From a phage: a stretch of DNA of 64,000 nt. Below are positions 16,740 through 64,000 of this stretch, piece by piece. A program made the translations under genes and the position numbers. The DNA is taken from the sequence record OZ346158.1. The stretch is one strand, 5' to 3'. Numbering within the stretch: position 1 is the first letter of the stretch; every line of letters starts with the position of its first letter. Below the pieces are notes generated by a model. That model had not been told where the DNA came from. It saw only the letters and a list, made by a program, of their open reading frames with translations, and did no database searches.

Positions 16740-17200
16740 ATTTCTAAAATGGATTTCCTCCTTTTGATATTTTACCTACCAGGATATTTTAAAATCCTTA
16801 GAAAATCAGAAAATGGATCGAAAACTAAAATGGATTTTTCAGAGCAGGCACGACGAGATGAACCACTCATCCTATCGTCTGCACCATATTCCAGACCACC
16901 ATTACAGATTTCCCGCACATGCTCACATCCTTCTACTAGAACTTCCCCCACTTACCCTTGACCTTTTATAGTAATAATCCAACCACTACCTTGAAGTTGT
17001 GGCGCAGCTTTCCAAGTACTCGATCTGTTTTTCGTTTCAAAGATTTAATTTTCTGAAAATTTTTCTCGATAAATTTCTCAGTACTCGATCTGTTTTTCGT
17101 TTTCTGAATCGGATTTTCTGGAAATCGTTCCGGCTCTCGACCTGAAATTTTTGGGGACGAAATCGATTTTTCGTTTTCAGAAATGGATTTTTAAAATTTC
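16740..17200. repeat. AT-rich iteron-like direct-repeat region (AAATGGAT and (T)CTCGATCTGTTTTTCGTTT families)
   Basis: AAAATGGAT at about 16747, 16811, 16827, 17192; CAGTACTCGATCTGTTTTTCGTTT exact at 17014 and 17079 with degenerate copies through 17180; no ORF. Confidence 0.6.
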
Positions 17201-17295
17201 TATATGGGAATATTTTAGTGGATACTATTTTATAGGAAATTGTTACGGAGGGTAATTAGCGTGCTAATTAAATTTATTAAATGCGAGGAGTTCTC

Positions 17296-27824: not shown

Positions 27825-28544
27825 TCTGCTCTTCTCCTACCATAAACGGCCCTACCTGGCAAGTGGAATAATTGACTAGCCATCAATCCCACATACTGTA
27901 CAAATATACATGGAAAATAACTATTGCATAATTTTTCATTGTGTGGTAGCAAGTCCATTTTTACCCGTTTTCTCTCCCAAAAGTGCACGTAATGCCGCTA
28001 TTGCACAAATTTTAACCTGATGCACATCTCCAATATCTTGTCAACAACTAAAAATCTTTATAAGTCATACACTTACACAGCATCGAAAGCGTGTTCTACG
28101 CGAAAAATCGAGTATAACTATAGCCGCCAGATCTCAGAATTCACGTACGCACGCCATTCTATAGCCTGCAAAGTATTTATTCCAACCACAGAATAACGGA
28201 ATAGTCAATACCTGCATAAAATAATTATTCGTGTAAACTGCATAACATAAATCAGCTCAGGTGTCAACATTTTTCGTAAACAGTCCGAAATTATCACGAT
28301 GAGTTATCATAAACAGAGAAATCTTTAGTCGTCTAATGTTTACTGTACATTACTATACTGACTGGAATCATTAGATGACTAATACAATAGAACAAATTAA
28401 TAATGTAATTATTTTACCTGTAACAATAAGGCAACTATGCAAACGAATGGCATGGCGCGACGGAGTCGCGACATAATATAAAAGCAGTAACCATCACCCC
28501 CGTGATAGTTTGTCTGCAAACTATTAATCAGATCATAGTTGCCT

Positions 28545-62719: not shown

Positions 62720-63274
62720 ATGAAATACTTTGTAACAAGCGACACACACTTTCTCCACCAGCGGGTCATGGAGTTTGATTCATGTCAAAAACACAGATCT
62801 CAGTATGATCACAATCTTGACAGTATGAATGCGGGAATCATCGCCGAATGGAACTCTGTTGTGTCACCTGCAGACACTGTGTTCCACTTGGGAGATATTG
62901 CGTGCACTAATGATAAGAATATCAACAACTTACTTCCAGATATTCTAAATATGTTGAACGGACATATTATTCTTGTTCGTGGCAACCATGACACACGGAC
63001 GACTGTCAGAATTATGAAAGAGTTCGGTCATGAGGTTGTAGATTATTACGAGCTTCGCCACAACAAGAATTTGATCTGTATGAGCCATTACCAATTTGCA
63101 AAGTGGAACAGAAAGCCTCACGGATCAGTCCAACTGTTCGGTCATGCTCACGGAACCACACAACAGTTGTTTGGCAGGCAGCTTGATGTCGGTTGGGATG
63201 TGTGGGGGAGACTCTTACCATTAGAAGAGGCATACCGTATTGCAATGAGTCTTGCTATTGACAGCGGGGAGTAA
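62720..63274 (+). CDS. calcineurin-like metallophosphoesterase
   Basis: VTSDTHF, GDIACTND, RGNHD, GHAHG metallophosphatase motifs; ATG 62720 (ORF track 62615..63274). Confidence 0.65.
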   Translation: MKYFVTSDTHFLHQRVMEFDSCQKHRSQYDHNLDSMNAGIIAEWNSVVSPADTVFHLGDIACTNDKNINNLLPDILNMLNGHIILVRGNHDTRTTVRIMKEFGHEVVDYYELRHNKNLICMSHYQFAKWNRKPHGSVQLFGHAHGTTQQLFGRQLDVGWDVWGRLLPLEEAYRIAMSLAIDSGE

Positions 63275-63321
63275 TCCCTGCTATTTTAAAGAAAATTGCC
63301 ACACAAGGAGAATCAGGAGAT

Positions 63322-63672
63322 ATGAAAGATGGGGATAAGCTGCTATATCTTAAAGTCCCCCTTGAAATACTGTCTATGTCAAAAGTTTTGAATGACACAA
63401 CTGGGGAGGTTGTTGTTCTTGACTTGTATGACAAGATCGTATACTGCTACCTGCACAACTGGTATAAGCTTGGAGGAAGTTCACGCTTCACACCCAGCAC
63501 AAGGAAAATTGCAGCAGATGTTGGGATAAAGAAAACAAAAGCAGCAGCGTGCGTTAAAACTTTAGAATGTGCAGGAGTGGTTGAAATATCCACACAAGGG
63601 AGAGGTAAAAGATGCACATTTTCCAAAGTTTTGCCACCAGAAGAGGTTATTCGAATGTCAACAACTGGTTAG
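63322..63672 (+). CDS. putative HTH DNA-binding protein
   Basis: STRKIAADVGIKKTKAAACVKTLECAGVV helix-turn-helix-like segment; followed by iterons. Confidence 0.45.
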   Translation: MKDGDKLLYLKVPLEILSMSKVLNDTTGEVVVLDLYDKIVYCYLHNWYKLGGSSRFTPSTRKIAADVGIKKTKAAACVKTLECAGVVEISTQGRGKRCTFSKVLPPEEVIRMSTTG

Positions 63673-63749
63673 ACCAGTAAAAACTTAAATATCTGTACTA
63701 TAAGGATTCGTATGTTTTATGTTCGCTCTGGAACAGAGGTTAGTAACTG

Positions 63750-63830
63750 TCCGTGATACGGACACTACTGTCCGTCACGCGGACACATCTGCCCGTAATA
63801 CGGACACTAACTGTCCGTGATACGGACACA
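63750..63830. repeat. four tandem palindromic iterons (CTGTCCGTGATACGGACAC family) followed by AT-rich tract
   Basis: CTGTCCGTGATACGGACAC at about 63757 and 63808 (exact), variants CTGTCCGTCACGCGGACAC and CTGCCCGTAATACGGACAC between; each has GTCCGT/ACGGAC dyad. Confidence 0.7.
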
Positions 63831-64000
63831 TAAAGAATATAACTAAAATAACTAAATAATAAAAAATAAAAGATCTAGTACTTATGGTACTAAGTACATA
63901 TACTTAACTTATGTAGAATATACTAGATCCTAAGTACCATGTTTTAAATTTATTACTTACTATGGGTAGTGTCGGCCCTTCATTGGCACTCGCCTACGAG

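Follow-up and report, generated by a model that had tools for sequence, protein, structure and literature searches.

Staphylococcal RepA_N initiators bind tandem semi-palindromic iterons as dimers, and those of pSK41 and pTZ2162 (PDB 4PTA, 4PT7, 4PQL and 5KBJ) consist in their N-terminal part of a DnaD-N-like winged helix preceded by a beta-hairpin; the origins of these plasmids lie within repA and their hosts are Firmicutes. At T4 oriF and oriG, the T7 primary origin and ColE1 RNA II, the origin adjoins, or is transcribed into, a structured non-coding RNA. A further initiator is RepA of the Vibrio cholerae satellite PLE, the N-terminal domain of which is PDB 4RO3 (PMC7145576). PLE replication requires this protein, which binds to repeats of the PLE origin, and it was classed as RepA_N-type by its structure, with no BLASTP similarity to the staphylococcal RepA_N initiators (Barth et al. 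2019, PMC7145576). In phage lambda, each iteron of the origin is bound by a dimer of the N-terminal winged helix of the O protein, a neighbouring AT-rich tract unwinds, and transcription through the origin can activate it (PMC7466680, PMC3985674).

Our analysis of a 64-kb window (the whole stretch of 64,000 nucleotides of phage DNA examined, from sequence record OZ346158.1) identified a locus at its right-hand end that resembles these systems in some respects and departs from them in others. Over positions 63200-64000 the sequence matches Escherichia phage APCEc02 at 100% identity and over 100 rV5-like phages (genus Vequintavirus) at 98% or more, and by this sequence identity the window is Vequintavirus DNA. 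Flanking sequence was taken from NC_041869 as locus L002 (window coordinate = L002 + 57199), and a genome of ~131 kb was reconstructed from the APCEc02 ends and the window. The preliminary description had set the region at 63322-64000, an extent that is cut short by the window end: the full intergenic region is a non-coding gap of 660 bp that separates the 116-aa ORF from one of 192 aa, and it crosses the window end near its middle, with ~330 bp more lying beyond. The features of the locus are, in window coordinates:

63258..63287, + strand: predicted sigma-70-like promoter TTGACA-18-TATTTT, from a promoter scan (L002 6059-6088)
63322..63672, + strand: gene for a winged-helix protein of 116 aa, intact ORF
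63673..63747, no strand: linker from the stop codon to the first repeat, poorly conserved
63748..63828, no strand: four repeats TGTCCGT-N3-ACGGACA, 17-bp palindromes
63748-63764, 63769-63785, 63790-63806 and 63812-63828: repeat copies 1 to 4
63829..63963, no strand: AT-rich tract of 135 bp directly after the repeats, candidate unwinding element
63863..63875, - strand: GATCTTTTATTTT, perfect match to the E. coli oriC 13-mer consensus GATCTnTTnTTTT
63964..64000, + strand, continuing as L002 6765-7035: GC-rich structured element of ~270 nt, reaching ~235 nt past the window end

We propose that the repeats, the AT-rich tract and the 116-aa protein make up an iteron-type theta replication origin, in which the binding protein would be reduced to its DNA-binding domain; judged from sequence comparisons, this is the reading that we consider probable, if far from certain. 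It would be a predicted origin for Vequintavirus, a genus for which none has been described: our literature search found no paper that connects iterons, RepA_N or an origin with this genus, and in two GenBank records the repeats are entered as 'repeat_region' with nothing further said about them. The rV5 genome encodes a gp4-like primase-helicase, a family-A DNA polymerase and a PIF1-type helicase; no other initiator was reported, and the origin was left undefined after a skew analysis in 2013 (PMC3606486). In the window, the cumulative GC-skew minimum falls at ~62260, 1.5 kb from the repeats, and since it coincides with the switch in transcription direction, GC skew is uninformative on replication here (PMC3606486). 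The rV5-like phages are widely isolated and have been proposed for the biocontrol or therapy of pathogenic E. coli, and a candidate origin of ~600 bp would be of help in phage engineering, in replication studies and for origin-based tools.

The four tandem inverted-repeat sites that had been noted downstream of an HTH-like gene are confirmed, with four copies found against 0.05 expected and none of 100 dinucleotide shuffles of the 64-kb window reaching four; Tandem Repeats Finder reports them with a period of 21 and 4.0 copies. Copies 1 and 4 are perfect, a single mismatch occurs in each of copies 2 and 3, the 3-bp centres are GAT, CAC or AAT, and the start-to-start spacing is 21, 21 and 22 bp, or about two helical turns. 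They are direct repeats with inverted sub-repeats: the 19-bp form CTGTCCGT-NNN-ACGGACAC in which they had been presented holds as a direct repeat, whereas as a palindrome its symmetry is limited to the inner 17 bp. The array begins 75 bp past the stop codon of the 116-aa gene and in another frame, whereas the lambda origin lies inside the O gene, between the parts encoding the DNA-binding and the helicase-loader-binding domains; in both phages four dyad-symmetric iterons (~18-19 bp in lambda) are followed by an AT-rich tract. The PLE repeats are of a different make, with long arms around a poly-A centre in place of 7-bp arms and a 3-bp spacer; iterons of the RepA_N family are direct repeats in which inverted sub-repeats meet at a poly-A tract. 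No further repeat site was found at up to two mismatches in the ~131-kb reconstruction, and this single locus excludes a global regulator.

Conservation is about eight times stronger in the repeats than in the linker next to them. When APCEc02-type phages are compared with those of the Aya clade, the linker differs at 16 of its 75 positions, the repeats at 2 of 81 and the AT-rich tract at 8-9 of 135 (6-7%). Where the repeats of relatives deviate, they do so in the 3-bp spacer, at position 7 of an arm or, now and then, at position 3, and in one clade copy 2 has become TGTCCGC-CAC-GCGGACA, which restores perfect symmetry. The repeats are kept in all 119 matching phage records (119/119) and in metagenomic relatives. 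Conservation of the sites extends to a 70%-identical homologue of the protein (P0017, locus L022), where the linker is unrelated and the palindrome TGTCCGTcacACGGACA is nevertheless kept: TGTCCGTCACACGGACA follows the unrelated linker, the next copy comes 21 bp further on, and the putative recognition helix of the protein is nearly unchanged.

The extremely AT-rich segment with dyads that had been noted after the repeats is indeed present, and nearest-neighbour energies make it the least stable stretch of 60, 100 or 130 bp both in the window and in the ~131-kb reconstruction. Its GC content is 19% over 63829-63963 and 15-22% in windows of 60-100 bp, with 22-28% also measured along it, and over 100 bp its stability is -102 kcal/mol, compared with -110 kcal/mol for the runner-up. 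The next least stable stretches of the window lie at ~28300-28420 and 17180-17290 (24-25% GC over 100 bp). Within the tract are four GTAC-based dyads (63876-63940), including the dyad TAGTACTTATGGTACTA quoted earlier (63876-63892), and two GATC sites. The tract also contains the only perfect match to GATCTnTTnTTTT in the 64-kb window; as a single occurrence, this oriC-type 13-mer is suggestive only. DnaA and IHF sites occur in many plasmid origins and are not universal; the 660-bp gap has no DnaA box at up to one mismatch and no IHF consensus, which counts against the origin reading.

For the 116-aa protein, the description as HTH-like holds in that the ORF at 63322..63672 is intact and encodes a winged helix, but not in the sense of a generic HTH regulator, since its closest relatives are initiators. 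A profile built from 18 members of its family matches PDB 4RO3 with an E value of 1.2e-11 (7.4e-6 for the single sequence), and PHROGs assigns the protein to family 12838 ('replication initiation protein') and matches it less strongly to other initiator families, the matches to 'replication initiation O-like' being weak (E 0.03-0.14). Its Pfam matches are all sub-threshold (DUF6945, 24.9 bits with a cut-off of 28; HTH_36, 22.8 bits with a cut-off of 25); neither RepA_N (PF06970), at E up to 10, nor Phage_rep_O is matched, and this too speaks against an origin. The alignment-based AlphaFold model (pLDDT 80.4, pTM 0.77; a single-sequence model with pLDDT 43 was discarded) has a beta-hairpin, three helices and a wing, directly after which the chain ends. 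Its six best Foldseek matches are to 4RO3, 4PQL, 4PT7 and 5KBJ ('Rep-DNA complex'), and 4PTA was also found. By sequence and by this model, the protein resembles the N-terminal domain of a RepA_N-type initiator, with the same DnaD-N-like winged helix and N-terminal beta-hairpin as the pSK41 and pTZ2162 proteins, although it belongs to an E. coli phage, has no Pfam RepA_N match and is encoded outside the putative origin. With this protein, PLE-RepA-like (RepA_N-type) DNA-binding domains, which occur in satellites and Gram-positive plasmids, would also be represented in a large virulent coliphage.

PLE RepA has a C-terminal domain and that of lambda O recruits P-DnaB, whereas in the phage protein, by sequence and model alike, there is no C-terminal domain and the DNA-binding domain stands alone. 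As this part is thought to recruit replication factors in RepA_N proteins and lambda O, its absence is an argument against an origin, and the domain-only form poses the problem of replisome recruitment. The family is rare: its 119 phage records are all Vequintavirus, 18 of them under the name Campylobacter phage, and it is otherwise found in a few metagenomic clusters; a protein search of IMG/VR returned no relatives. Longer members (143-217 aa) add just a tail with an acidic end and no C-terminal domain. Their acidic tails have a terminal or near-terminal aromatic residue (PPWEA, EEPF, DEAPF, GEDF). The C-terminal tails of SSB and T7 gp2.5 bind replisome proteins, and the tails of the 143-217-aa members resemble them; the rV5-type protein has no such tail. 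Another relative, P0012 (L020 4001-4687), is a fusion of a GIY-YIG nuclease domain with the DNA-binding domain of the family, and its gene directly follows that of a stand-alone DUF6945 protein (156 aa, L020 3522-3992).

The relation between protein and repeats is also seen in a 137-kb relative (L027), in which the phosphoesterase is 88% and the downstream ORF 83% identical to those of the phage, and in which the slot between them is occupied by a different winged-helix protein (143 aa, 27% identical, E 7e-6). Four to five different palindromes (CTGATACATATTTGCATCAG), with an AT-rich 6-bp centre, start on the stop codon of this protein and are followed by another AT-rich tract (14-30% GC) and then by the same downstream element. 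By this comparison protein and repeats have been replaced jointly, as is expected of a specificity pair, be it initiator and iterons or repressor and operators. The module is specific to Vequintavirus, since in other Vequintavirinae, namely Mydovirus KB57 and a related Salmonella phage, the ~118-aa protein encoded after the phosphoesterase is unrelated to the 116-aa protein. More distant homologues (30% identical; L017 and L018) are encoded after a 500-bp divergent intergenic region which contains the least stable DNA of the locus and 13-bp palindromes TACCT-N3-AGGTA; with 1-2 copies against 0.3 expected per locus, these are weakly above chance and suggestive only as binding sites.

The joint replacement would also fit a local transcriptional switch, in which the protein represses or activates a promoter in the AT-rich tract, with the palindromes as operators, and the promoter drives the structured element and the rightward gene block. 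Downstream of the gap, this block comprises small ORFs, a tRNA cluster, lysis genes, the terminase gene and the structural genes, all on the + strand, and the position of the repeats at its head, directly before a conserved non-coding element, suits an operator and so weighs against an origin. Many winged-helix regulators are structurally close when the core fold alone is compared, the protein is named 'putative transcriptional regulator' in some GenBank records (RefSeq has 'replication initiation protein', assigned automatically), and the divergent promoter region of L017 and L018 has its candidate palindromes ahead of a good TTGACA-17-TATAAT promoter serving the operon that encodes the homologue. 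However, no sigma-70-like promoter was found in or beside the repeats or in the AT-rich tract, and the rV5 late-promoter motif TGGTAAAATA is unmatched in both. The closest relatives by sequence and by full-length structure are initiators, not regulators, and four in-phase sites next to the least stable 130 bp of the genome exceed what an operator needs. We regard such a switch as the main alternative, though an unlikely one. The preliminary description had proposed an origin or an auto-regulated operator, and it is the first half that we favour, on the strength of the initiator homology, the unique phased repeats and the unstable tract. The second half, in the form of classical autoregulation, is unlikely, because ~460 bp separate the repeats from the predicted promoter of the gene upstream of them, and this promoter has no repeat site. 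This promoter, which has a TG upstream of the -10 element and precedes the winged-helix gene, is annotated as P76 in the rV5 record.

If the locus is an origin, as we favour, the 116-aa protein would be made early from its own sigma-70-like promoter and would bind the four palindromes as dimers, which the observed two-turn spacing would align on one face of the DNA. The resulting nucleoprotein complex may strain the 135-bp AT-rich tract, the low stability of which would allow it to open, and phage replication proteins would then load at the opened tract. As no terminator-like site was found between the promoter and the repeats or AT-rich tract, transcription may run through the region as it does at the lambda origin, and could aid the opening of the tract, to which the structured element may also contribute. 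In support of this model are, at the level of sequence, the kinship with initiators, the phased, unique and conserved repeats, the least stable tract and the joint replacement of protein and repeats and, by analogy, a group of satellite-like plasmids that appear to provide a parallel replicon with iterons, a least stable tract, the structured element and a RepA-like gene.

The structured element (53-59% GC) is non-coding and is followed by the 192-aa ORF. Rfam gave no credible match for the intergenic region (E up to 10) or for the satellite and variant loci (E up to 1), and ARAGORN detected neither a tRNA nor a tmRNA in the region; a tRNA-like stretch suspected in L027 is likewise not a tRNA according to ARAGORN. 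Parts of the element match, at ~85% identity, non-coding DNA in small, satellite-like E. coli plasmids and in metagenomic contigs (L023, L024, L035 and L038); the satellite copies have two to five 'TGTGTGGG plus hairpin' modules before the shared core. Between phage and plasmid, three of the six pairs of the core helix are changed on both sides with all cells remaining paired, compared with pairing in 12-57% of cells in slid controls, and the 5' hairpin shows two further compensatory changes, a covariation that comes from essentially two lineages. The G-U pairs fit the + strand only. These compensatory changes and + strand G-U pairs, together with the lack of an Rfam match, suggest that the element is probably an undescribed structured RNA or else a signal in folded single-stranded DNA. 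It may serve as a primer or activator transcript, as a leader RNA, or as a signal for helper recognition that satellites have copied. Transcript-assisted origins of the T4, T7 and ColE1 kind need no iteron-binding initiator, and their likeness to the phage locus is a lead only. Small ORFs (33, 31 and 56 aa) annotated inside the gap in some records were rejected as genes, one because it is the repeats read in frame and the others because they lie inside the structured element, where substitutions keep base pairs and not codons.

Among the plasmids carrying the element, NZ_CP020521.1 (L025, 13.7 kb) encodes a major capsid protein that shares 24% identity with the rV5-type head protein (E 3e-12), as well as baseplate and tape-measure proteins and a 303-aa RepA-like winged-helix protein. 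As it has no full set of phage genes, it resembles a phage satellite maintained in plasmid form, in agreement with the account by Barth et al. (PMC10055350) of putative E. coli satellites whose RepA_N initiators are modular. Its own iterons (CCCCGGTAAATATTTCCG, at least four copies) are followed in order by its least stable tract, the shared element and the RepA-like gene. The least stable tract contains three 26-bp palindromic repeats (the positions concerned being L023 350-460 and 560-720). The shared element thus offers a sequence handle on the helper functions that satellite-like plasmids exploit.

PLE is a satellite, whereas the rV5-like phages are themselves of the helper type. The module might be seen as one of phage-satellite conflict: a captured or decayed satellite or plasmid replicon, or a decoy that occupies the RepA-type origins of satellites, and not the origin of the phage. 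RepA_N-type domains are passed between phages and satellites and are turned by phages on satellite origins (PMC8263062, PMC10055350), P0012 has the architecture of Odn, the origin-directed nuclease of ICP1, the 116-aa protein looks like a truncated initiator, and the structured element is common to the phage and the satellite-like plasmids. Yet it is the phage's own genome that carries the cognate repeats, every matching record and the metagenomic relatives have kept them, and a decayed module would not keep its sites eight times better than the neighbouring DNA. The satellite-like elements that we examined carry different iterons (CCCCGGTAAATATTTCCG), and no E. coli genome was found with similar protein-coding DNA or repeats. 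On balance, such a conflict module seems to us improbable.

A packaging site, at which the protein would act as a small terminase subunit or packaging accessory on repeats beside bendable AT-rich DNA, is in our view very improbable. These records have no annotated small terminase, the gene for the large terminase is found ~4-5 kb downstream, and satellites, which must copy the packaging signal of their helper, have the neighbouring element in common with the phage. Nevertheless, it is only the structured element that they have, without the phage repeats or protein, and the compensatory pairs in this element indicate a folded single strand and not a duplex recognition site. Neither sequence matches nor fold points to small terminases, and the distant homologues adjoin DNA polymerase or RNA ligase genes, not terminases. 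A bolder version of the origin model, which we put forward tentatively and think doubtful, is a composite origin consisting of an exchangeable protein with its cognate repeats and a fixed RNA of ~270 nt, which would be recognised by the phage replisome or a helper function and copied by satellites. If this were true, satellites with their own RepA and iterons would exploit rV5- or phi92-like helpers via the RNA.

Upstream of the 116-aa gene lie genes for a polynucleotide-kinase-like ATPase and a phosphoesterase. Besides the E. coli phages, the 18 records labelled Campylobacter phage and CP057073.1 (137.6 kb, filed as an E. coli plasmid) are rV5-like and at least 97% identical in this region; these 19 records are probably mislabelled, contaminants or carrier-state phage.

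The same palindrome is found in other genomes. A scan of viral contigs for pairs of GTCCGT-N3-ACGGAC sites (spacer N7 between sites, N6 in the scan of bacterial genomes) gave seven loci, four of which (L028, L029, L030 and L034) have two to five copies at ~22-bp spacing in the middle of an initiator-like gene, with two copies in L034. The four genes encode an N-terminal Pfam HTH_36 domain (E 1e-9 to 1e-15) with the array just after it, and in L028 an ORF for a DnaB-like helicase follows the array-bearing gene. These loci have the lambda layout, with the origin inside the initiator gene, and provide an independent link between the palindrome and winged-helix initiators. The scan of bacterial genomes returned 122 loci, among them 92 single palindromes, which are at chance level, and 18 arrays, one of which is tied to an HTH_36 gene (by a crude HMM); that most of the bacterial arrays are not tied to an initiator gene is a point against the origin reading. 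These 18 arrays (among L044-L160) have three to eight GTCCGT-N3-ACGGAC sites, mostly with a 21-bp period, and occur mostly in high-GC bacteria (Planctomycetota, Armatimonadota, Myxococcota and Streptomyces).
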